From assembly GCA_002781265.1 (NCBI GenBank), contig PETS01000105.1, positions 1 to 47,034 of the forward strand: 47,034 nt of DNA, in the 5' to 3' direction. The notes below the pieces were generated by a model. It made no database searches. It saw nothing but the letters and a program-made list of their open reading frames with translations, and had not been told where the DNA came from. The position numbers were made by a program, and so were the translations under genes. Below, piece by piece: positions 1,396 through 44,242 of the stretch; position 1 is the first letter of the stretch; each line of letters opens with the position of its first letter. Origin of the DNA: Candidatus Falkowbacteria bacterium CG02_land_8_20_14_3_00_36_14 (lineage in GTDB: Bacteria; Patescibacteriota; Patescibacteriia; Patescibacteriales; UM-FILTER-36-11).

Positions 1396-2111
1396 ATGAA
1401 AGATATAATATTACTGCCAACTTATAACGAAAAAGAAAATATAAAATTGATAATTCCGGAAATTTTTAATTTATATCCAGATATTTATATATTAGTTATA
1501 GATGACGATTCCCCTGATAAAACAGCGGAAGAAGTAAGATTTTTAATAAAAAAATATCCTATTTATCAATATTAGAAAGAAAGAAAAAAACCGGGTTGGG
1601 CGATGCTTATAAAAAAGCGATAAAAGAGGCGATTAAAAATAAAGATTTAAGGTCTATTATTACTATGGATGCCGATGGATCGCATTCGCCGCAATATCTC
1701 GGAGAAATGTTAGATAATATAAATAATTATGATGTGGTAATCGGTTCTCGTTATATTAAAGGCGGAGGCGTGGAAAATTGGGAGGTATGGAGAAGAAATT
1801 TAAGCAAGTTCGGGAATTTATATGCCAACGCATTAACTGGAATAAAGATTAGCGATTTAACTTCAGGCTTCGTTTGCTATAAGAGGGATATTTTAGAAAA
1901 AGTTGATTTTTCAAAAATTGATTCTAGCGGGTATGCTTATCAGATTGAGATGAAATATTATTTAGTAAATAATTTAAAGGTTAAATATAAAGAAGTTCCT
2001 ATAATTTTTAAAAATCGTCGGGAAGGAGAATCAAAAATTTCCAATCAGATTATCACCGAAGGCATTGTAGCCCCTTTGAAATTATTTATTAAAAAAATAT
2101 GGAAAAAATAA
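1396..2111 (+). pseudogene. Dpm1-like GT2 polyprenol-phosphate hexose synthase, disrupted by a frameshift (or an assembly error)
   Basis: Frame 1 from ATG 1396 gives MKDIILLPTYNEKENI...YILVIDDDSPDKTAEEVRFLIKKYP and stops at TAG 1573-1575. The family continues in another frame from about 1563: LSILERKKKTGLGDAYKKAI...MDADGSHSP...GSRYIKGGG...SGF. The shift lies between 1560 and 1563, next to an A7 run and an atttat stretch. Confidence 0.8.
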
Positions 2112-2974
2112 TCTGTCCGATTTGCGGATCGGATAAAAATAAATTTTTTTGTGAAAAAAATAATTATAAAATTTATTTTTGCTTCCGATGCCGAGCAGGA
2201 TTTGTTTGGCCGGTGCCGGAGACGTCAAAAGATTTATATAGTGAAAGTTATTTTATAAATGATGATAAAGTCAGCGAATTCGGATACACCGATTATGAAA
2301 AAGACAAGGAGCCGATGAAAGGGATATTTGTCAGCTATTTAAAGAAAATAGAGCAAATCACTAAAGGAAGAAAGTTAATTGATATTGGAGCGGCAACGGG
2401 TTATTTTTTGGACTTAGCCAAGGAACGCAACTGGGAAACCTTTGGCATAGAGTTATCGGAATATGCCGCTTCTCGAGCAGGAGAAAAGGGCCATAAAATG
2501 ATTGATGGCCGATTGATTGGCGAAAATATTAACGAAAAGTTTTCCGCCGTTACCATGTGGGACGTATTAGAGCATTTCAACGATCCCAAAAATGAAATTA
2601 GGAAAGCCGGCCGATTATTGGAAGCGGGCGGCGTACTGCTTTTAAACACTATTGATTTTGGAAGTTTATCTTCCCGCTTGATGGGAAGGCGATGGCATTT
2701 AATTGTGCCGCCGGAACATCTTTTTTATTTTTCGCGGAAAAGTTTGTTTTTACTCTTGGAAAGTTCAGGTTTTAAGATAATAGCGGTGGAAAAAATGGGA
2801 AAAAAATTTTCTTTTGCATATATTTTTAAAGTATTATATAATTGGCAGAAATTAATAATTTGGAAAAAATTATCTAATTATTTTAATAATAATAATTTTT
2901 CTAGGAAATTTTACATTCCGATAAATTTAAGAGATAATATTTTAATAATAGCTAAAAAAAATAAAGATGCTTAA
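2099..2974 (+). CDS. Class I SAM-dependent methyltransferase with N-terminal C4 zinc ribbon
   Basis: CPICGS...CFRC zinc ribbon; motif I IDIGAATGYFL; WDVLEHF and LLEAGGVLLL post-I motifs. Confidence 0.8.
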   Translation: MEKIICPICGSDKNKFFCEKNNYKIYFCFRCRAGFVWPVPETSKDLYSESYFINDDKVSEFGYTDYEKDKEPMKGIFVSYLKKIEQITKGRKLIDIGAATGYFLDLAKERNWETFGIELSEYAASRAGEKGHKMIDGRLIGENINEKFSAVTMWDVLEHFNDPKNEIRKAGRLLEAGGVLLLNTIDFGSLSSRLMGRRWHLIVPPEHLFYFSRKSLFLLLESSGFKIIAVEKMGKKFSFAYIFKVLYNWQKLIIWKKLSNYFNNNNFSRKFYIPINLRDNILIIAKKNKDA

Positions 2975-4673
2975 TATAATTAAAAAACATTATTTGATTT
3001 TAATTCTTGCTTTAATTGCAGGAACTTTAACGGCTTTGCCCCAAATTTTAGCGATTAAAAAAATTAATAATTTTCAAGGTATTTATAAGATTGCCAATAA
3101 TGATGAAACTTATTACTTGGCGCGAGGCAGAGATATTATTGACGGCCATAGCCATCTGGGCAACCCGTATTTATTTGAACATAAAAATGAGCAACCAGTG
3201 CAATTTTGGTTGCCGGATTATATATTAGCTAAGCCGTTGGCTATTTTTAATATTAATATTCATTATGGATATTTTTTTTATGATTTTATTTTTCCATTTG
3301 CATTGGTGCTTTTAACTTATTATATAATTTATTTATTAACCAATGAAGTATCTGTTAGTTTTTTGGGAACGGCCTTTTTGCATCTAAATTTATTTTTATA
3401 TGCCTTCGGCAGATCTCCCAGCCCCCAGTTGAATTTTTTATTTTGGCTTTTATTATTTTTATTTTGGCTTAAATTTTTATATCAATCAAATTATAAAAAT
3501 GCCTTTATTATGGGGATATTTTTCGGATTATTATTCCATATATATACTTATTATTGGACTTTTTATATTGTATTTTTTGTTATTTATATTTTAGTAAATA
3601 TAATTTTAAAACGTCATATTGAGTACAAAAAATATTTATTAGTTACATTAATCGTTTTTTGTTTTTCCATTCCTTATTTTATTTCTATGCTTAAAAGTAT
3701 TGGTTTACCATATTATATTGAGTCGCTAACTAGGATAGGAATGGTAAACACCCATTTCCCGTCCGGTAGAAAAATTTTTATGTGGGGCTTTTTAACGCTG
3801 ATTTTATTTTTTATGGCATATAAAAAAAAGGTAATAGATATAAATAATAAATCATTATTATTGCTGAGCGGAATATTAGCGGCAATAATTACGGTAAACC
3901 ATCATTTAATTACGGGTAAGAATTTGCAGTTTTCCAGCCATTATTGGATGCTAAGTGTTTTTATTTTTATTTTTACCTTAGTTTATATTATAAATTTATT
4001 ATTAGAGAAGATAAAATACAAAAAAATTAAATTAGTAATCTTGGTATTGGTTTTTTTATATATATTTTATTATCCCACAACCTATGCCATTAGTATTATT
4101 GAGGGAGACGCTATTTCTTATAGTGAAAATAGTATTAAACAGCAAAATTATGCTCCCATATTCAAATGGCTAAATGAAAATACTTATCCGGACGAGGTGG
4201 TGTTTGCCAATAATGAATTAAGTGGTTTAATACCTGTTTATACTGCCAATAATGTTTTTTATTTTGCCATGGCTGGTCTGCATTTTATGTCCGATAAGGA
4301 GTTTCAAGAAAGGTTTATACTTAATAATTATTGGCATGAGTATAACGAACAATATGCTATAGATAATAAATTTGGTATTTGGGGAGCGTATTATCAGACA
4401 AAATATGACCACGAACAAAGTAAAAATAAAATAAGAAAATTATTTTTTATTCCGCCAAAAGAATATATAAAAATTCCGCAGGAAAAGATAGATAAATTTT
4501 TAGAATTAGCCAAAGAAATTCAAAGCAATGATTTTGAAAGTCAATTAAAAAAATACAGAGTTGATTATTTAATTTGGAATAAGGCGGCCGATCCCGATTG
4601 GAAAATTAACGATCAAAAATTTTTAAGTCTTATTATTCAAGTAGACGATTTAGCTATATATAAAGTTAATTAA
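2967..4673 (+). CDS. Polytopic membrane protein, GT-C-like glycosyltransferase or polymerase candidate
   Basis: 568 aa with about 10 or more hydrophobic segments over the first 370 aa, then a soluble C-terminal domain. It sits next to the Dpm1-like GT2. No catalytic motif recognised with certainty. Confidence 0.45.
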   Translation: MLNIIKKHYLILILALIAGTLTALPQILAIKKINNFQGIYKIANNDETYYLARGRDIIDGHSHLGNPYLFEHKNEQPVQFWLPDYILAKPLAIFNINIHYGYFFYDFIFPFALVLLTYYIIYLLTNEVSVSFLGTAFLHLNLFLYAFGRSPSPQLNFLFWLLLFLFWLKFLYQSNYKNAFIMGIFFGLLFHIYTYYWTFYIVFFVIYILVNIILKRHIEYKKYLLVTLIVFCFSIPYFISMLKSIGLPYYIESLTRIGMVNTHFPSGRKIFMWGFLTLILFFMAYKKKVIDINNKSLLLLSGILAAIITVNHHLITGKNLQFSSHYWMLSVFIFIFTLVYIINLLLEKIKYKKIKLVILVLVFLYIFYYPTTYAISIIEGDAISYSENSIKQQNYAPIFKWLNENTYPDEVVFANNELSGLIPVYTANNVFYFAMAGLHFMSDKEFQERFILNNYWHEYNEQYAIDNKFGIWGAYYQTKYDHEQSKNKIRKLFFIPPKEYIKIPQEKIDKFLELAKEIQSNDFESQLKKYRVDYLIWNKAADPDWKINDQKFLSLIIQVDDLAIYKVN

Positions 4674-4674
4674 A

Positions 4675-5316
4675 ATGAAAAAAGAAATTTCTCTATTAAG
4701 AAAATTTGAGTATGAGGCGATTTCCCAAGTAAAAATTGACGGAAAAATTTTAGATTTGGGCGGAGACAGAAGATCTGGTTATCATGAGCTTATTAAAGGA
4801 GAGTATAAAATTGAAGTCGTTAATATTAATAAAGAAACTGGAGCAGATTTATGCTTTGATCTTGAAAAAGTTTTTCCTATCACGAGCGAAAGCTACGAAG
4901 CGGTTATGTGCGTTAACGTTTTAGAGCATATTTTTAATTATAAAAACGTTTTGGATGAAAGCTTTAGAATTCTTAAAAAAGGAGGGAAATTGGTCGGGGT
5001 AGTACCATTCATTTTTAACGTCCATGGCTCTCCGGATGATTATTTTCGTTTTACTGGAACAGCGCTTAAAAGGATTTTAAAAGAAGCTGGGTTTGCAGAT
5101 CTTCGCGTAGAAGAATTAGGTACTGGCATATTCAGCGTAATATTCCAGATTAAATACGGATTTTTCAGATTTATTTATTTAAGGAAATTAGCTATGAAGT
5201 TTTACATTATGCTTGATAAAATTTTAATACAGAAAATTATTAAATCTTTAAAGCCAAATAATCATTTATCGGAGAAGCATCTTCCTTTGGGTTATTTTTT
5301 CATTGCAAAGAAATAA
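4675..5316 (+). CDS. SAM-dependent methyltransferase (type 11-like)
   Basis: ILDLGGD, CVNVLEHI and LKKGGKLVGVVP motifs in the order typical of class I methyltransferases. Confidence 0.7.
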   Translation: MKKEISLLRKFEYEAISQVKIDGKILDLGGDRRSGYHELIKGEYKIEVVNINKETGADLCFDLEKVFPITSESYEAVMCVNVLEHIFNYKNVLDESFRILKKGGKLVGVVPFIFNVHGSPDDYFRFTGTALKRILKEAGFADLRVEELGTGIFSVIFQIKYGFFRFIYLRKLAMKFYIMLDKILIQKIIKSLKPNNHLSEKHLPLGYFFIAKK

Positions 5317-12022: not shown

Positions 12023-13024
12023 ATGTCTAACATCAATTGTTTAGAAAATAAAACAGTGTTGATTACCGGTGGAACCGGTTCTTTCGGTAAGAATTTTATT
12101 AAGCATCTGCTTATTAATTCTAAGGCTAAAAAAATTATTGTTTTTAGTCGCGATGAATTAAAGCAATTTAATATGGCAAGGGAGCTTAACGACGAAAGAT
12201 TGAGATTTTTTATCGGAGATGTTCGCGATAAAGATAGATTAATGCGTGCTTTTTACGGAGTTGATATCGTAATTCATGCCGCGGCCTTAAAACAGGTGCC
12301 TACCATTGAGTATAATCCTTTTGAAGCCGTAAAAACTAATATTTTAGGAAGCCAGAATGTTATAGACGCCGCGATTGATCAGGGCGTAGAAAAAGTATTG
12401 TTGATTTCAACAGACAAAGCGGCGCAACCTATTAATCTTTACGGTTCGACTAAACTATGCGCGGAAAAATTATTTATCAGCGGAAACGCTTACTCGGGCG
12501 GAAAAACCAGATTTAGCTGCGTGCGCTATGGAAATGTGATTGGCAGCCGGGGAAGCATTGTGGAAACCTTGGTTAATAAGCCGAAGGGCGAAAAAGTGCT
12601 CATTACCGACGAAAGAATGACCAGATTTTGGCTTATACTTGAGCAGAGCTTTGTACTCGTTTTATTCGCCTTGGATAATATGGTAGGCGGGGAAATTTTT
12701 ATTCCTAAAGTTCCGAGCATGAAAATTATTGATATAATAGACATCATTACTCCTGATTCCATAAGAGAGATTATTGGCATAAGACCGGGAGAAAAAGTGC
12801 ACGAAATGCTTTTAACCCGCGAAGAATCAAGGCACGCGGTTGCGCTTGATAAATATTTTGTCATTATTCCCGAGCATAAAGAAATATTTAACATGGATAA
12901 TTTTAAAAAGTATACGGATAAAGGCGAAGGATTGCCCCAGGATTATTATTTTGCCAGCGATACAAATGAAAATTGGCTGTCGGATGACGACTTTAGAGAA
13001 ATTGTTGAAAATTTAAAAGTATAA
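12023..13024 (+). CDS. pseB: UDP-N-acetylglucosamine 4,6-dehydratase (inverting), PseB/FlaA1 type
   Basis: ITGGTGSFGK, KKIIVFSRDELKQ, RFFIGDVRD, IHAAALKQVP..EYNP, STDKAA.PINLYGSTKLCAEK and VRYGNVIGSRGS are collinear with PseB/FlaA1. Confidence 0.9.
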   Translation: MSNINCLENKTVLITGGTGSFGKNFIKHLLINSKAKKIIVFSRDELKQFNMARELNDERLRFFIGDVRDKDRLMRAFYGVDIVIHAAALKQVPTIEYNPFEAVKTNILGSQNVIDAAIDQGVEKVLLISTDKAAQPINLYGSTKLCAEKLFISGNAYSGGKTRFSCVRYGNVIGSRGSIVETLVNKPKGEKVLITDERMTRFWLILEQSFVLVLFALDNMVGGEIFIPKVPSMKIIDIIDIITPDSIREIIGIRPGEKVHEMLLTREESRHAVALDKYFVIIPEHKEIFNMDNFKKYTDKGEGLPQDYYFASDTNENWLSDDDFREIVENLKV

Positions 13025-18786: not shown

Positions 18787-21069
18787 ATGTACAGATTCAA
18801 TAAAAGCCATCAATTTTTTAAAAAAGCAAACAAAATCATTCCTTTAGCATCCCAGACTTTTAGCAAGAGTTATTTGCAGTATATTAAAGGACAGGCACCA
18901 TTGTTTGCTGTCCGTGCCAAGGGAGCGCGCATTTGGGATATTGACGGCAATAAATATATTGATTTTATCAACGGACTTTTACCGGTTATTTTAGGATATC
19001 AAAATCTGGCAGTTGATGATGCAATAAATAGGCAGTTAAAAAAAGGCATTGTTTTTTCTTTGTCATCGCCGCTGGAGTATGAATTGGCTGAACTTCTGAT
19101 AAAACATATTCCTTGCGCTGAAATGGTTAGGTTCGGCAAAAACGGATCTGATGTTACTACCGGCGCCGTACGTCTTGCGCGGGCTACAACCGGACGCGAC
19201 CATGTCGCTGCTTGTTATGATAAAGAAACAGAAATACTAACTAAAAGTGGATTTAAAAAATTTAAAGATTTAGATGATAATGAAATAGTAGCTACTCTTA
19301 ATCCTAATACAGGTTATTTAGAATATCATCAAATTTATGCCAAAATAAAATATTATTTCACGGGCAAAATGATTCATTTTCTAGGGCAGAGAGTTGATTT
19401 GCTGGTAACGCCTGATCATAGAATATATAGAAAATTCAGATTAAGAACGGGGCATCATTTTAAAATAGAAGATGCTAATGATGCCTTGAAACGCAAAACC
19501 ATTACGCAAATGACATCAATGTGCAAGTGGAAAGGGAAAATAAAGAATAAATTTTCTATCCTTAAAATAAATCAAACTAGACCGGCAAAAGGCGTTAATT
19601 TTTTTTCAGTCAAAGAATTTGTTAGATTTATGGGTTGGTATCTATCCGAAGGATTTTGCATAGAGCAGAAAAGGGGCAGATACGAAGTATGTATTGCGCA
19701 AGATGAAAAGAATGAAAGAAAAAGTCAAGAGATATTTACAGTGATTAAAAAATTAGGATTTAAACCTTATAGAAATAACCACCATATTTGTTTTAACTCT
19801 AAAGAATTAGTTCAGTATCTTAAGCAATTTGGAAGGTGTAAAGATAAATATATTCCAGAATGGATTAAGAATTTGCCAAAAGATTGTTTGTCTATATTCG
19901 CAGATACAATGATAAAGGGAGATGGTACTTTTGAAAATGGCAGAATAAGAAAATTTTATTCTACCTCTCGTAAATTAATAGATGGAATGCAAGAATTATT
20001 GTTAAAGATTGGTTATTCAACGACAATCTCTGAATATAAAAATACAGGTTTTTCTAAAAATAAAATATATCATTTAAATATTAGCCAAGAGAGATTTTTA
20101 GGATGTTGGTCAAAGGAAAAATATTATAAAGGCAATGTTTATTGCATTAGCGTGCCGAATCATATTATTTTAGTAAGGCGTAATGGTAAAATTATTTGGT
20201 CAGGGAATTGCGGTTACCACGGCTGGCATGACTGGTATATCGGTTCCACCGCGAGAAATTTAGGCGTACCCAAAAGTACGCAAAAGCTCACCCATAAATT
20301 TGAGTACAATAATATTAAATCTTTGGAAAAAATATTTAAAGAAAATAAAAATAAAGTGGCGGCCGTGATAATGGAGCCGATGAATTACATTGAGCCGGAG
20401 AAAAACTTTTTGCAAAAAGTGAAAACGTTAGCGCATAAAAACGGCGCGCTTTTGATTTTTGACGAAGTGATTACCGGTTTTCGCTTTAGCTTGGGCGGAG
20501 CGCAAAAATTATTCGGCGTAACGCCTGACTTGGCCGCGTTCGGAAAATCAATGGCCAACGGCATGCCGATATCGGCTTTGGTGGGCAAGAAGAAATATAT
20601 GAAAAAAATTGAGGACATTTTCTATTCATTTACTAACGGCGGAGAGACGTTGTCCATAGCCGCCGCCATCGCCACCATTAAAGAAATGGAAAAAAAGAAA
20701 GTTATTGAACATATTTGGAAGCTTGGTGCGTATTTAATAAAAGAAACAGATAAATTAATTAAGAAAAATAATTTGGAAGAAGTAATAAAAATTAAAGGTA
20801 AGCCGTGCTGGAGTTTGATGTTCGCTTATCCTTATGGAAAATATTCAGATTTGGAAATAAAAAGTTATCTGCAGCAGGAATTGATTCAAGCCGGTTTTCT
20901 TTGGTACGGTCAGCATAATATGAGTTTTAGCCATACGAAAAAAGATATTAGCGGCTTAGTCAGCGCTTATGCGAATATTTTTCCTAAATTAAAAGAACTT
21001 TTAGATAAGGATAAATTAAGAGGAGCTTTAAATGGCGAACCGATTACTAATATTTTTAAAGTACGATAA
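18787..21069 (+). CDS. Class-III PLP aminotransferase (glutamate-1-semialdehyde aminomutase-like) carrying an intein
   Basis: Exteins: GARIWDIDGNKYIDF, RFGKNGSDVTTGAVRLARATTGRDHVAA | CGYHGWHDWY, DEVITGFR, AAFGKSMANG (PLP lysine). The exteins total 428 aa, as expected for the family. Confidence 0.85.
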   Translation: MYRFNKSHQFFKKANKIIPLASQTFSKSYLQYIKGQAPLFAVRAKGARIWDIDGNKYIDFINGLLPVILGYQNLAVDDAINRQLKKGIVFSLSSPLEYELAELLIKHIPCAEMVRFGKNGSDVTTGAVRLARATTGRDHVAACYDKETEILTKSGFKKFKDLDDNEIVATLNPNTGYLEYHQIYAKIKYYFTGKMIHFLGQRVDLLVTPDHRIYRKFRLRTGHHFKIEDANDALKRKTITQMTSMCKWKGKIKNKFSILKINQTRPAKGVNFFSVKEFVRFMGWYLSEGFCIEQKRGRYEVCIAQDEKNERKSQEIFTVIKKLGFKPYRNNHHICFNSKELVQYLKQFGRCKDKYIPEWIKNLPKDCLSIFADTMIKGDGTFENGRIRKFYSTSRKLIDGMQELLLKIGYSTTISEYKNTGFSKNKIYHLNISQERFLGCWSKEKYYKGNVYCISVPNHIILVRRNGKIIWSGNCGYHGWHDWYIGSTARNLGVPKSTQKLTHKFEYNNIKSLEKIFKENKNKVAAVIMEPMNYIEPEKNFLQKVKTLAHKNGALLIFDEVITGFRFSLGGAQKLFGVTPDLAAFGKSMANGMPISALVGKKKYMKKIEDIFYSFTNGGETLSIAAAIATIKEMEKKKVIEHIWKLGAYLIKETDKLIKKNNLEEVIKIKGKPCWSLMFAYPYGKYSDLEIKSYLQQELIQAGFLWYGQHNMSFSHTKKDISGLVSAYANIFPKLKELLDKDKLRGALNGEPITNIFKVR
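19213..20208 (+). mobile_element. Intein with LAGLIDADG homing-endonuclease domain (332 codons)
   Basis: Begins with Cys (CYDKETEILT). Has TPDH (block B TxxH) and two LAGLIDADG-like motifs, MGWYLSEGF and MIKGDGTF. Ends ...IIWSGN, followed by Cys+1 (CGYHGW). Confidence 0.85.
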
Positions 21070-23379: not shown

Positions 23380-24891
23380 ATGCCAAATTTGAAAGGAAAA
23401 AAAATATTAATTTTTCAGCAAAGAGGCTGGGGTAGGCGCATCGGCCGTTTTTTGGCCGCGAAATTATACGCCGAAGGATGCAAGTTGGCGGCTTTGACTT
23501 TTAAAAATACAACACATGAATTAATAGTTAAGCAGGATGATGCCAAATATGAAATGATAATCAGCAATGACAAAATTATGAGTCGACCAAAAGATTATTT
23601 AGGGGGAGACAGATATTCCTTAAAGGAAATTTGCGATAAAATCGGAGTGGATTCAATATGGCCGATAGTTTCTACCCTTAGAAATCATGTGAGGTCGTAT
23701 AAAGATAAATATTATTACAGTTTTAAGCAAAACGTTTCTGATGAGGAAATTATTGATTATATAATGGCTGTTTATAAGTATATGAATATTTTTTTTCATG
23801 AGTTTAAGCCAGATGTAATTATTACGCCTAATTTTGTTTCATTCCCTCACGTTATGTTTAATTTGTACGCTAGAAAGCTAAATATCCCGATATTCGCTAT
23901 TACGGATAGTAAAATTAGTGGCTATTATATATTTACTTATGATTATAACGATAGCGACGGGCCATTTTACAGGAGAGTTGATGAGCTTAATTCTGGGAAA
24001 GTTGAAACTGAAAACAGGAAAAAGGCCAAGGAGTATATCAGAGAGTTTAGGGAAAATTTTAAAAAACCCGATTATATGGGCGATAACGAAAGCGAGCCGT
24101 CAATGCTACAAAAAATAAAGAAAGAATTATCGCCGTATGCACAAATAATCCGTTGGTACCTCAAGAAGCAAATTAATGTGCTGGAAAGCACCGGCATTAC
24201 CATTGATTATAAGCCGCCAAGAATTATTCTAAGGGATCATTATTGCCATGAACGCTATAAAAAATTTATGGAACATTATTCTTATTATCCTTTTTCCAAG
24301 GTAAAAAAGTTTGTTTATTTTCCGTTGCAATTCCAACCGGAAGCCACGATTGACGTGATTTCTCCACGCTTTAACAATCAAATAGAAACGGCAAGGCAGG
24401 TTGCTATGTCTTTGCCCGGCGATTACACTCTTGTCGTGAAAGAGCATCCGGGAATGGTTGGTTTAAGGCCGCCGTCTTATATTAAAAAAATAGATAGGAC
24501 GCCTAATATTAAATTAATAGATTATAAAATAACCAGTGAAGAAGTCCTAAAAAAAACTGATTTAATAATATCTCCCAGCGGAACAACAATCGCCGAAGCC
24601 GCTTTCTTTAAAAAGCCGGTTATTCAGCTGGGAAATTTGGGAACTACCTTGAAACTACCGAATGTGTTTAAATATACGGATATGACTTCCTTGCCTAAAA
24701 AGATAAAAGAAGTTTTAGAAGTTAATTTAAATACTAATGATTACGAGAGGAGGCTTGAAAATTATGTTGCGGCTGTTTTTGACGTTACATTTAATTTTAA
24801 TTACATTAAAGCATGGGAAAAGGGAACAGGAGATTTGGAAAAACTTTGGGTTTTTTATAGAAAAGAAATAGAAAATAGTTTAATAAATTAA
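23380..24891 (+). CDS. Capsule polysaccharide biosynthesis protein-like (KpsS/KpsC Capsule_synth-type) putative glycosyltransferase
   Basis: VYFPLQFQPEATIDVISP...VVKEHPGMVG...TDLIISPSGTTIAEAAFFKKPVIQLG resembles the Capsule_synth family pattern. Confidence 0.5.
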   Translation: MPNLKGKKILIFQQRGWGRRIGRFLAAKLYAEGCKLAALTFKNTTHELIVKQDDAKYEMIISNDKIMSRPKDYLGGDRYSLKEICDKIGVDSIWPIVSTLRNHVRSYKDKYYYSFKQNVSDEEIIDYIMAVYKYMNIFFHEFKPDVIITPNFVSFPHVMFNLYARKLNIPIFAITDSKISGYYIFTYDYNDSDGPFYRRVDELNSGKVETENRKKAKEYIREFRENFKKPDYMGDNESEPSMLQKIKKELSPYAQIIRWYLKKQINVLESTGITIDYKPPRIILRDHYCHERYKKFMEHYSYYPFSKVKKFVYFPLQFQPEATIDVISPRFNNQIETARQVAMSLPGDYTLVVKEHPGMVGLRPPSYIKKIDRTPNIKLIDYKITSEEVLKKTDLIISPSGTTIAEAAFFKKPVIQLGNLGTTLKLPNVFKYTDMTSLPKKIKEVLEVNLNTNDYERRLENYVAAVFDVTFNFNYIKAWEKGTGDLEKLWVFYRKEIENSLIN

Positions 24892-24895
24892 TTTT

Positions 24896-27061
24896 ATGCT
24901 TGATGAAAAATTTTTAAACATGCTTTGTTGCCCGAAACGGTTTTGTCGCGGAGATTTGGAAGAATCGGCGGAAAACGAGGAATCGATTTTAAAATGCAAA
25001 AACTGCGGGGATAAATATTCCATAAAAGAGGGAATTCCTATTTTATTTCCGAACATCAAATATTCTTCAAATATCCACCGCCGACATTGGGATTTAGAAA
25101 TGAACGCAAAAAGTTACGCAAAAAAATATAATAGTTATTTAAAAAAACAGGGGTCAGCCTGGGGGTTGTATACTCATTTATCGGAATTAGAGGCGATAAA
25201 TAAACTCACTAAAGATATTGATTTATCCGGCAAGACTATAATAGACGCCGGATGTGGCAATGGTAGATTGCTTTCCGCTTATCCGGAGGCTAAAAATAAA
25301 ATAGGAATTGACACATCATTATCGTTACTTGAGGAAACAAAAAAAAGAGAACCGAGCTTTTGGCTTATATGCGGCCAGCTTGAAGATATGCCGTTTAAAG
25401 ATTGTATTGCCGATTTTTCTATAAGCATAAGGGTATTCCAGCATTTACAAGCCCCAGAACATGCTTTTTCGGAAATGGTTAGAGTAACGAAGCCATCAGG
25501 ATATATTTCTCTAGAAGTATACAATAAATTTAATTTAAAAGAATTGTACAAAAAATTTCGGATGTCTAAATTAATTAAAAATAGATGGCCGTGGGGTTTG
25601 GATTACGATAGATATTATTCATATAGAGAAATTGAAAAATGGTGTGGGGATAACTTTGTAAAACCAATTAAATATTCAGGAGCTGGCTGGGGAATTTATT
25701 TTTATTTTTTTGAAGTAATACAATTCAGGAGGTTTGCCCCACAGTGGTTCCAAAAAATTGTTTTTAATTTTTTTCTTTACCTTGAAAGAATAATTGGTCT
25801 TTGGCCGTTTTTTTCAAAAACCATGGAAAAAATATGTTTTATCGGAAGCATTCAGGCGAAAGAAAAAAATAGAACATTTTTTAAGAAAATAAGCGACCGC
25901 TTAAAGAGCGTGAGAAAAGAAAAAAAGGCGAAAGAATTTGAAAAAAAATTTGAGAATAGAAATTATTGTTATATAAGAGATGATATGTATCACTTGAAAT
26001 CCTCCATTGACTGGATAAAGAAAGCTCAAGACAATACCGCCGACGCCGGTGTTAGCAGGGGGGTAAGCTTGATTTCAAGTTTAAAAAGCAATAGTCGGGG
26101 CTGGCAACCGTCATATCCGGAAACAACCGGTTATATAATCCCAACAATTTTAAAAGCCGCTGATATGCTTGATGATTATGATTTATTAAGAAGGGCAAAA
26201 TTAATGGCTGATTGGGAATTATCCATTATATTTCGAGATGGGGCAGTGCATGGGGGAAATATAGGGGTAAAATCTAATTGCGCAGTTTTTGATACTGGTC
26301 AAGTTATTAGGGGTCTTTACGCTATTTACAAGAAAACAAATGAAAAGAAATATCTGGACGTAGCTATTAAATCTTCCAATTGGATATTAAATAATGAGAA
26401 CGCAAGAAAAGGAAATTGGACTGAAAATAACGCTTCCTCTGTTGATTCCTCTACGACGACTTATAATATTTACGCGATTGCGCCGATTATAGAAATGGGG
26501 GTAGATATCGGGAATAGCGAATTTAAAGAGCTGGGGAGAAGAGCCGCTGAATTTACCGTCAGTATGCAAAATGATAGCGGTTGGTTTGAAGGCGCTGATT
26601 TTAAGAAAACGGACAGTGCTTTACTACATACAATAGCATATACGATTGACGGGTTGTGGGATGTCGGCATCTTATTAGATGAAGAAAAATTTTTAAATTC
26701 CGCGAAAAAAGGGTTGGACGGAGTTTTATCACAAATGAACGATAGGGGTTTTATTCCGGGGCGTATGGATAGCGATTGGAATGCATCCGCGGATTGGGCG
26801 TGTTTGACCAGTATAGCTCAGATTGGCGTTGCATGCGTAAAAGTTTACAAAAAAGGAGGAAATAAAAAATATTTGGAAGCGGCTTTGAAGGCGAAAGATT
26901 TTTTAAAGACCTGCCAGAATAATTTTAATGATGAACATGGCGGGCTGGGGGCTTTGTGGGGAAGCTGGCCGATTTCCGGCGGTTACGGAAAATATGAAGC
27001 GCTAAATTGGGCGGTCAAATATTTTGCGGATTTATTGATTGCGCTAAGAAGCGTAAATTAA
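24896..27061 (+). CDS. Fusion protein: Trm112-like zinc ribbon + SAM methyltransferase + C-terminal alpha/alpha-toroid-like repeat domain
   Basis: CCPKRFC...CKNCGDKYSIKEGIPILFP; IIDAGCGNGRLL...RVFQHL...KPSGYISLEV. C-terminal 350 aa has repeated helical-pair motifs (ETTGYIIPTILKA, DTGQVIRGLYAIY, LHTIAYTIDGLW, WGSWPISGGYGKYEALNWAVKYF). Confidence 0.6.
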   Translation: MLDEKFLNMLCCPKRFCRGDLEESAENEESILKCKNCGDKYSIKEGIPILFPNIKYSSNIHRRHWDLEMNAKSYAKKYNSYLKKQGSAWGLYTHLSELEAINKLTKDIDLSGKTIIDAGCGNGRLLSAYPEAKNKIGIDTSLSLLEETKKREPSFWLICGQLEDMPFKDCIADFSISIRVFQHLQAPEHAFSEMVRVTKPSGYISLEVYNKFNLKELYKKFRMSKLIKNRWPWGLDYDRYYSYREIEKWCGDNFVKPIKYSGAGWGIYFYFFEVIQFRRFAPQWFQKIVFNFFLYLERIIGLWPFFSKTMEKICFIGSIQAKEKNRTFFKKISDRLKSVRKEKKAKEFEKKFENRNYCYIRDDMYHLKSSIDWIKKAQDNTADAGVSRGVSLISSLKSNSRGWQPSYPETTGYIIPTILKAADMLDDYDLLRRAKLMADWELSIIFRDGAVHGGNIGVKSNCAVFDTGQVIRGLYAIYKKTNEKKYLDVAIKSSNWILNNENARKGNWTENNASSVDSSTTTYNIYAIAPIIEMGVDIGNSEFKELGRRAAEFTVSMQNDSGWFEGADFKKTDSALLHTIAYTIDGLWDVGILLDEEKFLNSAKKGLDGVLSQMNDRGFIPGRMDSDWNASADWACLTSIAQIGVACVKVYKKGGNKKYLEAALKAKDFLKTCQNNFNDEHGGLGALWGSWPISGGYGKYEALNWAVKYFADLLIALRSVN

Positions 27062-39377: not shown

Positions 39378-40580
39378 ATGCCGGAAAAATTTGATTTTCT
39401 TAAAATTAAAGATCAGAAAAAATTTGAAAAATTACCCCAAAAGGAGCGGGAGGAAATTATCGGCGAAGCGCAAGAGGAAGCGTCTTTAATAAATGAGATT
39501 GTTGGAGAAAATGGTAGTAAAGAAGATTATGAAATAATCACTAAATTAGCGGAAGAAGAAATTATTTCTAAAAAGGATATAGAAATTTTAAAAGAAAAAT
39601 ATAATAAAAAAATAGATGATATTTTAAATAGCCAATTAACCGTTGAAAATATTGAGACGTTTGCCGATAATGCTTTAACACAAATAACAAGTTTTGTTGA
39701 TGATGTTTTATCGCAATATCAAAAATATCACAATAATAAATTTGCGGTCATAGACCATGCGGAACAAGAGAATCAAGCGCTTGCATTTTTTGGATTGCCA
39801 GATATTCCAAATATTTTGCAATCTATTATTGAAGTAAAAGAAAAAATAGACAATCTTAAAGCATATATTGGTATAAATATAGCGAAAAATAATATAGTTA
39901 TTACTCCACCGGATAATAACAAAAAAATAAATGCGGGAGATGGGCAGGGAATAGAGCAAAAAAGAATGTTTCCGCGCTTTTTAACGCTTCTTTATATTCT
40001 TAAATACGATTTTGATATTTCGCCGAATGAAGCGCCCGCAATAATAGGAATTGTGACGCCTGACATGGTACGGCAAACAACGTATATGCGAATGGAAATA
40101 CCAGTTTTTAACCGCGTGGTTTATCTATGCGACGAAGAAGGAAATGTGAGTTATATTTTTGATGTGGCAAAAATAGAAGAACAAAATCTTACTCTTAATG
40201 AAATAGATATTTACACAAAAATACAAAAAAATCTTCTAATATCTCGCCACCCCGGCATTGGCATTAGAATAAAGCAAACGAATATATGGAGAAACAACAT
40301 AACTTCCGCATTAAGAGAACCGATTTCTGAGGCAAGTTTATTAAAAAACGCAAGACAAATATCCGAATTTAGACGAGGAAAAGGCGAATTTCTTTCTTTT
40401 GAAGAATTTCAGCGTGAAGTAATAAGTTTATATTCCGGAGAAAAAGATGTCCGAAAGTGGTATTGTCAGGAACGGAGGAATCATCCTAATTGGCCAGCAG
40501 ATCCTTATAAAAAATATAAAGACAAAGGATGGGAAGGATGGTCAGAGCTTGTGGGAAAAAATAGATTTAAAAAAATTTAA
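39378..40580 (+). CDS. Hypothetical protein with C-terminal integrase-repeat-like W/Y-rich module
   Basis: 400-aa ORF. Acidic coiled N-terminus. The C-terminal FLSFEEFQREV...RKWYCQERRNHPNWPADPYKKYKDKGWEGWSELVG resembles the module found on phage or homing-endonuclease-associated proteins. Confidence 0.5.
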   Translation: MPEKFDFLKIKDQKKFEKLPQKEREEIIGEAQEEASLINEIVGENGSKEDYEIITKLAEEEIISKKDIEILKEKYNKKIDDILNSQLTVENIETFADNALTQITSFVDDVLSQYQKYHNNKFAVIDHAEQENQALAFFGLPDIPNILQSIIEVKEKIDNLKAYIGINIAKNNIVITPPDNNKKINAGDGQGIEQKRMFPRFLTLLYILKYDFDISPNEAPAIIGIVTPDMVRQTTYMRMEIPVFNRVVYLCDEEGNVSYIFDVAKIEEQNLTLNEIDIYTKIQKNLLISRHPGIGIRIKQTNIWRNNITSALREPISEASLLKNARQISEFRRGKGEFLSFEEFQREVISLYSGEKDVRKWYCQERRNHPNWPADPYKKYKDKGWEGWSELVGKNRFKKI

Positions 40581-43741: not shown

Positions 43742-44242
43742 ATGTCTAAAAAATGCATATTATTTTCCGGCGCGGTTGGCTGTTCAAAAACTCCGACAGC
43801 TACATATTTAAGCCAGCAGTTTGATTTGCCGATTTTAAGCAATGATTCCATTCGCACTGAAATATTGGAAGATTTCGGCAAGCCAAACGAAAATGAATAC
43901 ATGAAACGCAGAGATAGTCGGTTGAATATGATTTTAGGCAGCGGCAAATCATTTATATTAGACGTCAGTATAGACAGGGAATATGAAAGAATAATGAAAT
44001 TATTAAAAAAATATAAATATCGACATATAATTATTAGTTTTGATTTGAGTAAAAAATTATTAATAAAGCTTTATAAAATCAAAGGGTATAAAGAATCCCT
44101 AAAAAGAGTTGACAGTTTAATATTAGATCATGGGAATTTTATTAAAAAATATAATAAAGTTGTCAATTTACATATTAATGACGATAATTTTACTGATCGG
44201 TTAAATATTTCTTTTAACAAAGTAAAAAGTTTTATAAAGTAA
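43742..44242 (+). CDS. Small P-loop NTPase/kinase-like protein
   Basis: ILFSGAVGCSKTPTA is a degenerate Walker A (Ser in place of the second Gly). ILDVS is Walker B-like. Confidence 0.5.
   Translation: MSKKCILFSGAVGCSKTPTATYLSQQFDLPILSNDSIRTEILEDFGKPNENEYMKRRDSRLNMILGSGKSFILDVSIDREYERIMKLLKKYKYRHIIISFDLSKKLLIKLYKIKGYKESLKRVDSLILDHGNFIKKYNKVVNLHINDDNFTDRLNISFNKVKSFIK

Follow-up and report, generated by a model that had tools for sequence, protein, structure and literature searches.

Why does an aminotransferase gene carry 332 codons that its closest relatives do without? The gene in question is an open reading frame (ORF) at 18787-21069 (+) of contig PETS01000105.1 from Candidatus Falkowbacteria bacterium CG02_land_8_20_14_3_00_36_14, the whole 47,034-nucleotide stretch being called the window below. 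Its 760 codons plus stop form an intact frame, which encodes a HemL-like class-III aminotransferase interrupted by an insert (amino acids 143-474, CYDKETEILT...IIWSGN, 19213-20208). The flanking exteins together account for 428 amino acids: an N-extein of residues 1-142 (18787-19212, +), which ends in ...TTGRDHVAA, and a C-extein of residues 475-760 (20209-21066, +), which begins with CGYHGWHDWY. A preliminary description, made from the letters alone, had proposed an intein with these lengths and boundaries; the ORF list and the translation bore out the former, and the latter proved correct to the base. From sequence and a predicted structure, we consider it highly probable that the insert is a class-1-type intein with a nested two-motif LAGLIDADG homing endonuclease, able to splice and to home as proposed below.

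The junction gives the clearest view of the insert as a separate element. Pfam found Aminotran_3 in two stretches of the ORF (165 bits against a gathering cut-off of 30.5), with LAGLIDADG_3 inside the insert. The best 120 database homologs of the joined exteins, mostly from metagenome-assembled genomes (MAGs) of Patescibacteria/Parcubacteria, were all intein-free at 71-89% identity, and all measured 407-450 amino acids except one 604-residue GNAT fusion. In a MAFFT alignment the junction VA(A/V)^CGYHGW (the caret marks the insertion point) was gapless in 120/120 of them, with 0 gaps over positions 135-150; Gly-Tyr-His-Gly was invariant, and a native Cys stood at +1 in 116. Once spliced in silico, the exteins also matched NCBIfam PRK06209 in one unbroken stretch (residues 3-426) and the glutamate-1-semialdehyde aminomutase (GSAM, the HemL enzyme) chains of the Protein Data Bank (PDB) from end to end (3L44, E = 1e-58). 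Because of this gapless junction and of full-length insert homologs reaching E = 1e-118, the insert is not a product of chance.

The preliminary description had also claimed that excision restores a conserved segment beside the pocket of the pyridoxal phosphate (PLP) cofactor, and the alignments agree. In Synechococcus GSAM, the gating loop starts with Tyr150-His151-Gly152 and makes contact with the cofactor or intermediate (PMC7338781). Since the equivalent residues begin that loop, the insertion point, judged by alignment, lies two residues ahead of a catalytic-site element, in keeping with the rule that places inteins at highly conserved catalytic sites. A syntenic cluster (L002) with the gene order ABC exporter, PseB, DegT ... 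GNAT, aminotransferase, DUF218, EamA, NeuB, GNAT holds an intein-free ortholog (P0123, 87% identity), whose intein-less site reads ...ATCGCTGTT^TGCGGCTATCACGGCTGGCACGACTGGTAT... A tblastn search found no second copy of the intein within the window. In another class-III aminotransferase (P0379), an intein of the same family sits four codons downstream of the site in the window (...VRSGYH^C...GN^SWHSW...), a second insertion point inside the same YHG motif.

The splicing and endonuclease parts of the insert

As a single sequence, the insert gave weak signs of a splicing domain. It matched NCBIfam models of intein-containing ribonucleotide reductase, DnaB, RpoA'' and GyrA at E-values from 6e-7 to 0.02, and phmmer against the PDB returned only PI-PkoII (E = 0.028). 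Pfam LAGLIDADG_3 was matched at E = 7.7e-8 (32.9 bits, gathering cut-off 22.5). We used a family profile and structure prediction in place of the weak single-sequence detection of the Hint part. The profile matched PI-PkoII at 2.4e-20, TliVMA at 2.4e-18 and the N-terminal Hint part of the AceL NrdHF intein at 2.9e-9, as well as I-DmoI and PI-MtuI, the latter in the Hint region. An AlphaFold2 model of the insert had a mean predicted local distance difference test score (pLDDT) of 94.4 and a predicted template modelling score of 0.92. In a Foldseek search of the PDB it matched whole inteins at E<=1e-10, and the best 16 matches were all bifunctional intein-endonucleases (TliVMA at 1.8e-17, PhoVMA, PI-PkoII, PI-SceI and PI-PfuI). 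After these, the inner domain resembled I-DmoI (E = 2.5e-6) and the outer one mini-inteins, bacterial intein-like (BIL) domains and Hedgehog Hint domains (about 1e-3).

By intein numbering, in which Cys143 of the ORF is Cys1, the endonuclease domain spans approximately residues 130-292 (19600-20088, +), as delimited by DSSP on the model, by matches to I-DmoI, I-SceI and PI-PkoII and by Pfam LAGLIDADG_3. Both halves of the duplicated alpha-beta-beta-alpha-beta-beta(-alpha) LAGLIDADG core were present in the model. The first consists of helix 133-146, strands 147-151 and 157-162, helix 168-180, strands 186-188 and 191-195 and helix 197-206; the second of helix 223-237, strands 238-241 and 244-250, helix 253-265 and strands 269-276 and 284-291. 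The linker between the Hint and endonuclease parts (residues ~110-130) is short and partly of low confidence. On this evidence the insert is a HINT domain in which a two-motif LAGLIDADG endonuclease is nested.

The individual blocks were located in an alignment of 60 family members hosted by many unrelated proteins, on which all conservation counts below are based. Block A (CYDKETEILTKSG, 19213-19251, +) starts with the nucleophile Cys1, present in 60/60, and its T6, E7, L9, T10 and G13 are conserved. The block-B TPDH and the two LAGLIDADG-like motifs named in the preliminary description were found at 19408-19419, 19627-19653 and 19900-19926 (all +). Block B (TxxH) comprises Thr66-Pro-Asp-His69, with Thr66 in 54 members and His69 in all. 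Each LAGLIDADG motif keeps an acidic residue followed by Gly: the candidate metal-binding Glu146 in FMGWYLSEG (54/60, with Asp in five more) and the candidate metal-binding Asp237 in ADTMIKGDG (57/60). Block F (VYCISVPNHIILV, 20137-20175, +; positions as in PMC4031507) holds Cys311 at F:4 and the block-F histidine His317 (38/60), and Arg322-Arg323 is invariant. Block G (KIIWSGN^C, 20188-20211, +) holds Gly331 (58/60), Asn332 (60/60) and, as the first residue of the C-extein, the +1 Cys. Across the family the +1 residue is always a nucleophile (Cys 30, Ser 23, Thr 6), and the -1 residue is variable. At every position conserved in at least 90% of members, the copy in the window has the consensus residue. 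Cys1, the block-B TxxH, the terminal Asn with Cys at +1, a HINT fold and a contiguous host, the features of a class-1 intein, are thus all found. The exception is the penultimate His (G:6), a highly conserved but non-obligatory position that is Gly473 of the ORF here.

From these conserved residues and established intein chemistry, we infer the following route. Cys143, aided by Thr66 and His69 of block B, would convert the Ala142-Cys143 peptide bond into a thioester, and Cys475 at +1 would receive the N-extein by trans-thioesterification. Cyclisation of Asn474 would then release the intein, and an S-to-N shift would leave ...RDHVAA-CGYHGW..., the same sequence as in the intein-free orthologs. 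Because Gly replaces the penultimate His throughout the family, other residues must assist the cyclisation; His317 and the invariant Arg322-Arg323 are candidates. The unspliced precursor would be expected to be catalytically inactive, since its PLP-pocket loop is interrupted.

The Cys at F:4 raises a different route, in which Cys311 rather than Cys1 would attack the N-terminal splice junction. Class 3 inteins, such as those of mycobacteriophage Bethlehem DnaB and Deinococcus Snf2, are defined by an obligate Cys nucleophile at F:4 (PMC4031507), and such a Cys occurs in the window copy and in 39/60 family members. Class 3 inteins, however, are without an N-terminal nucleophile and show the triplet Trp(B:12)-Cys(F:4)-Thr(G:5), whereas Cys1 is invariant here, B:12 is Ile71 (Leu, Met, Ile or Phe across the family) and G:5 is Ser330 (Ser or Cys). 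Moreover, F:4 is Asp, Ser or Gly in 21 members (11, 7 and 3), so that the Cys is not obligatory, and in inteins generally only one residue is found more often at F:4 than Cys (PMC4031507). We rejected the class 3 route on Cys1, B:12 and G:5, and regard it as scarcely plausible.

The preliminary description was right that the penultimate residue is Gly rather than the usual His. It is no oddity of this copy, though: the alignment shows a family trait and not a lesion. Inteins without a penultimate His were reportedly described by Chen, Benner and Perler in 2000, and the Chlamydomonas ClpP intein (Wang and Liu, 1997) and the Ssp DnaE intein (Sun et al., 2005) are said to be examples. These resemble the window intein in having a residue other than His before the terminal Asn; they are isolated exceptions, whereas Gly is conserved in nearly all members of the present family. 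Splicing without the penultimate His is documented by those references (within PMC4031507).

Among solved structures, the archaeal VMA inteins TliVMA and PhoVMA (PDB 7QSU, 7QSS and 7QST) were the best structural matches, with Foldseek E-values of 1.8e-17 to 3.7e-15 and template modelling scores of 0.66-0.71. Like the window intein, they consist of a HINT splicing domain into which a two-motif LAGLIDADG endonuclease is nested, but sequence identity is only 15-17%; their host is V-ATPase subunit A, not an aminotransferase, and they carry accessory domains (PMC8966425) where the window intein has only a short linker. With both acidic residues in place the VMA intein endonuclease is active, and their loss inactivates that of PhoVMA (PMC8966425). 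At the sequence level the best match was PI-PkoII, the DNA polymerase intein of Thermococcus kodakarensis (PDB 2CW7). Like PI-SceI and PI-PfuI, it is a bifunctional intein-endonuclease; unlike the window intein, these three have 454-537 residues, extra DNA-recognition regions and replication or V-ATPase hosts. Block F of PI-PkoII reads VYD, with Asp at F:4, against VYC in the window. Identity to these closest characterised relatives, archaeal VMA inteins and PI-PkoII, is 12-17%. In mechanism and structure the element is an ordinary intein of class-1 type that houses a LAGLIDADG endonuclease, and a specialist would not be surprised by the mechanism.

Occupied alleles and the evidence for homing

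The preliminary description did not recognise the insertion site. It is not unique to the window: inteins of the same family occupy this position in at least 10 further class-III aminotransferases from public databases. The same codon position is occupied in an Omnitrophota MAG (L001, GCA_030018895.1; intact 771-residue ORF, L001:4876-7191), a Micrarchaeota MAG (L003; 777-residue ORF, 2063-4396) and a Pacebacteria MAG (L083; intact precursor, ~2864-5188). The same site is also occupied in a Rokubacteria MAG (P0002) and in the further clusters P0033, P0241, P0243, P0258, P0273 and P0285, where the +1 residue is Cys or Ser. The genes neighbouring the Omnitrophota, Pacebacteria and intein-free L002 aminotransferases form a nonulosonic-acid cluster in all three.

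Comparison of the alleles separated the history of the intein from that of its host. Between the window and the Omnitrophota allele, the inteins are 71.8% identical, the N-exteins 42.7% and the C-exteins 33.7%. The Micrarchaeota allele gave 68% over the full-length intein and 34-36% for the exteins, and the Pacebacteria allele 66% over the C-terminal 100 intein residues, the only part compared, and 33% for the C-extein. In 60-nucleotide windows, nucleotide identity to the Omnitrophota allele rose from ~0.5 to ~0.75 exactly at 19213 and dropped just after 20238. The second step lies 30 nucleotides inside the C-extein: this 3' half of the presumed homing site, or co-conversion tract (20209-20238, +), is identical at 30/30 nucleotides and 8/8 degenerate codons (P ~4e-4 to 8e-4 at the extein background rate). 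The 5' half in the N-extein (19183-19212, +) is variable, with 15/30 identical. A co-conversion tract would account for the identical flank, and so would an endonuclease target under constraint. As the intein identity is far above the extein identity and steps at both junctions, these comparisons show, at the level of sequence, that the element moved horizontally between divergent aminotransferase genes and phyla, as expected of past homing.

Composition differs in the same direction in both hosts: the GC content of the intein is 0.29 against 0.41 and 0.37 in the exteins of the window allele, and 0.32 against 0.46-0.48 in the Omnitrophota host. Such a difference from the flanks could also hint at an assembly chimera, or at a free-standing endonuclease gene fused through sequencing error, and one frameshifted gene elsewhere in the window indicates that the assembly or genome is not free of errors. 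Yet the same in-frame architecture recurs at the same codon in independent assemblies from at least four phyla, and the boundaries restore the conserved motif exactly; an artefact of this kind is next to incredible.

For the intein itself, the ratio of nonsynonymous to synonymous divergence (dN/dS) between the window and Omnitrophota copies was 0.13 overall and 0.11 in the endonuclease domain, at a dS of 1.4, which is near saturation. This comparison alone yielded a usable ratio, dS to the Micrarchaeota copy being saturated. The low ratios show, as far as such divergence can be read, that the element has been kept under selection for both its activities. The homing cycle would then run as follows: the freed intein, through the putative metal-binding pair Glu146 and Asp237, would cut intein-less alleles near GCTGCT^TGCGGTTACCACGGCTGGCATGACTGGTAT, and repair from the occupied allele would copy the intein into the cut one.

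Several points weigh against a splicing and homing intein. Both splicing and DNA cleavage are predictions from sequence and model. The preliminary description had proposed profile searches for Hint and LAGLIDADG; the latter succeeded, but no Pfam Hint model matched the insert alone at E<=1, NCBIfam intein_Nterm stayed below threshold (E = 0.011, 16.7 bits against a cut-off of 24.5), and only 11/60 family members matched a Pfam Hint model. The Hint evidence comes instead through the family profile and the high-confidence model, the latter itself dependent on an alignment of family members. Neither of the two outcomes that the preliminary description had named as refuting it was observed. The penultimate His is absent, F:4 is Cys in place of the commonest residue, Asp, and the Chlamydomonas ClpP intein with its penultimate Gly is reported to splice poorly. 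Finally, since 0/120 closest orthologs are occupied and dS to the nearest known copy is ~1.4, the last transfer of the window intein was not recent, and its present-day endonuclease activity is putative.

The missing His, the F:4 Cys and the lack of a direct Pfam Hint match could be read as marks of an intein that has died or been domesticated and has lost the ability to splice, the gene being a pseudogene or the insert a permanent extra domain. We find this highly unlikely. The same features are common to the whole family, in dozens of unrelated and otherwise intact enzymes, and that family has an invariant Cys1, His(B:10), terminal Asn and +1 nucleophile. The ORF is intact and under purifying selection, and a permanent 332-residue domain would hardly be tolerated because the insertion splits a conserved gating loop next to PLP.

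The empty orthologs and the high dS suit another explanation, namely that splicing persists but the endonuclease has lost its activity or usefulness in this lineage, leaving the intein a vertically inherited passenger that is not mobile at present. Degenerated endonucleases in otherwise intact inteins are documented, as in PhoVMA (PMC8966425). Against this, both LAGLIDADG acidic residues and all the family positions conserved at 90% or more are kept, dN/dS is as low in the endonuclease domain as in the splicing domain, and the sharp identity steps and identical flank show past homing between distant hosts. We judge the passenger explanation unlikely, though a serious competitor, and prefer an intein with both activities.

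Two observations concern the public records of these alleles. The gene calls P0014 (Omnitrophota), P0085 (Pacebacteria) and P0001 begin at an internal Met within the intein (MVKGDGTF... or MGFKPYRN...). Because the full precursor frame is intact upstream in L001, L003 and L083, these annotated 395-434-residue 'aminotransferases' are truncated mis-calls; on the same ground we rejected the idea that they are degraded or split inteins. Secondly, the closest relative of the window intein in GTDB, at 68% identity, lies on contig JBBSVO010000006.1 (L003, 279 kb), which is labelled Candidatus Micrarchaeota. Either the gene or intein has crossed between the domains, or the contig has been binned wrongly. 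If the binning is correct, a near-identical element in bacterial and archaeal MAGs would be a clean marker of cross-domain gene flow in episymbiont-rich communities.

The intein family and the choice of host

How widespread is this kind of intein? A homology search with the insert gave 375 matches, among them relatives at 100% coverage and 30-41% identity inside many unrelated proteins. HMMER against 1.84 billion cluster representatives (clusters at 50% identity) found 1,485 proteins at E<=1e-30 and 6,755 at E<=1e-10. With the single intein as query, exact-peptide matching against GTDB genomes yielded 40 pattern matches and 0 confirmed relatives, and an alignment-based scan of GTDB species representatives yielded at least 565 family loci. 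Among the 120 matches listed, the hosts included GTP cyclohydrolase I (~40), thymidylate synthase (7), dCTP deaminase (4), GDP-mannose dehydratase/epimerase (4), PAPS reductase (2), MCM, RuvC and dCMP deaminase. Some family proteins of 2,500-3,700 residues hold up to 9 matching stretches, as multi-intein precursors. One 790-residue protein with a same-family intein (P0373; ...GTDNID^CYDDKTEILT...IWCGN^S...) is presumably, from the look of its sequence, a phage terminase large subunit, and phages could be a vector for the spread of the family.

These observations allow a broader reading in five parts. The window copy may belong to a very large, essentially uncharacterised clade, with at least 1,485 clusters and at least 565 GTDB loci. 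The clade may be recognisable by Cys1, TxxH, a mostly Cys F:4 and ...W-S-G-N^C,S,T without a penultimate His, a signature most of whose bearers are missed by Pfam Hint models. It may favour metabolic enzymes (GTP cyclohydrolase I, thymidylate synthase, dCTP deaminase, PAPS reductase, sugar dehydratases and the aminotransferase), and it may be frequent in ultra-small bacteria of the Candidate Phyla Radiation (CPR) and in DPANN archaea, having crossed the Bacteria-Archaea boundary at the aminotransferase site. Lastly, the active-site cysteines Cys1, Cys F:4 and Cys+1 could make splicing redox-conditional, whereby the intein would gate the synthesis of nonulosonic-acid surface glycans post-translationally. 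Taken jointly as a single reading, the five are speculative, and we think it decidedly improbable that all hold together.

The preliminary description regarded a glycan-biosynthesis enzyme as an uncommon host. In support, intein hosts are mostly replication and repair proteins (61.5% in bacteria), followed by nucleotide metabolism (21.7%) (PMC4760082; PMC2874743). A precedent nevertheless exists in UDP-glucose/GDP-mannose dehydrogenase (COG1004, category M), with 10 UDP-GlcDH inteins in Euryarchaeota (Novikova et al. 2016, PMC4760082). These establish sugar-nucleotide and envelope-glycan enzymes as hosts, but in a different host fold and at a different insertion site. The main text of that survey mentions no class-III aminotransferase host, and a limited literature search found no paper on an intein in a class-III aminotransferase or in the nonulosonic-acid pathway. 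What is new here is the host and the insertion site, already present but unrecognised in public MAGs.

The intein host list would accordingly gain a class-III aminotransferase of the nonulosonic-acid (sialic-acid-like) pathway. Public annotation of the allele is poor, with three NCBI or ENA gene calls truncating the enzyme from inside the intein, and the Hint part is invisible to Pfam in most family members. The family provides natural compact inteins (332 residues in the window copy) that dispense with the penultimate His, together with a new LAGLIDADG specificity, which may serve protein engineering or as a meganuclease scaffold. Of possible interest are also the unrecognised size of the His-less family and the metabolic enzymes that it prefers as hosts in genomes of CPR/DPANN type, as well as one allele apparently shared between Bacteria and Archaea and its systematic public mis-annotation.

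The aminotransferase, its gene cluster and the rest of the window

The host enzyme has the features of a class-III (fold type I) PLP aminotransferase, including a candidate Schiff-base Lys (codon 20545-20547, +) in AAFGK that aligns with the Lys of GSAM. The joined exteins scored below the curated HemL equivalog cut-offs, with 392.8 bits against 486 for PRK06209 and 266.8 against 527 for TIGR00713. Because they fall below every curated NCBIfam cut-off, the enzyme is, by its sequence, only HemL-like and not demonstrably HemL (glutamate-1-semialdehyde 2,1-aminomutase).

Pfam matches and neighbouring ORFs place the interrupted gene within a nonulosonic-acid cluster, in agreement with the context given in the preliminary description. 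Upstream lie genes for a PseB-like dehydratase (starting at 12023), a DegT aminotransferase (13027), the first of two GNAT proteins (15122), a GFO/IDH oxidoreductase (16128) and a cytidylyltransferase (17089), followed directly before the aminotransferase by EamA (17850, minus strand). DUF218 (21069) comes directly after it, then NeuB (21637) and the second GNAT (22759). The window is a segment of bacterial chromosome, with holB, frr, an RseP-like M50 protease, hpf and secA, and its bulk is devoted to glycan biosynthesis, with many GT4 and GT2 glycosyltransferases, methyltransferases and an ABC exporter. Judged by the taxonomy of the closest extein homologs, the DNA very probably comes from a CPR bacterium. 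Scans of the window for tRNAs and Rfam families gave no matches.

Three further features of the window were noted. A GT2 glycosyltransferase gene at 1396-2111 (+) is broken by a frameshift: its N-terminal part (MKDIILLPTYNEKEN...) stops near 1578, and the remainder is an ORF at 1596-2111 in another frame, covering only positions 68-167 of the Pfam GT2 profile. Since the break falls among A-runs (1546-1553 and 1585-1591), it is either a pseudogene or an assembly indel. At 24896-27061 (+), a 721-residue ORF joins a Trm112p-like zinc ribbon, an S-adenosylmethionine (SAM) methyltransferase domain and a C-terminal region with weak matches to (alpha/alpha)6-barrel families (Pec_lyase, GH127, squalene-hopene cyclase C and C5-epimerase C), an unusual fusion within the glycan island. 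Finally, four ORFs had no Pfam match (E<=1e-3 or 1e-4): those at 23380-24891, 39378-40580 and 43742-44242 (all +) contain 0 hydrophobic segments, and the one at 2967-4673 (+), with approximately seven, may encode a polymerase- or ligase-type membrane protein.

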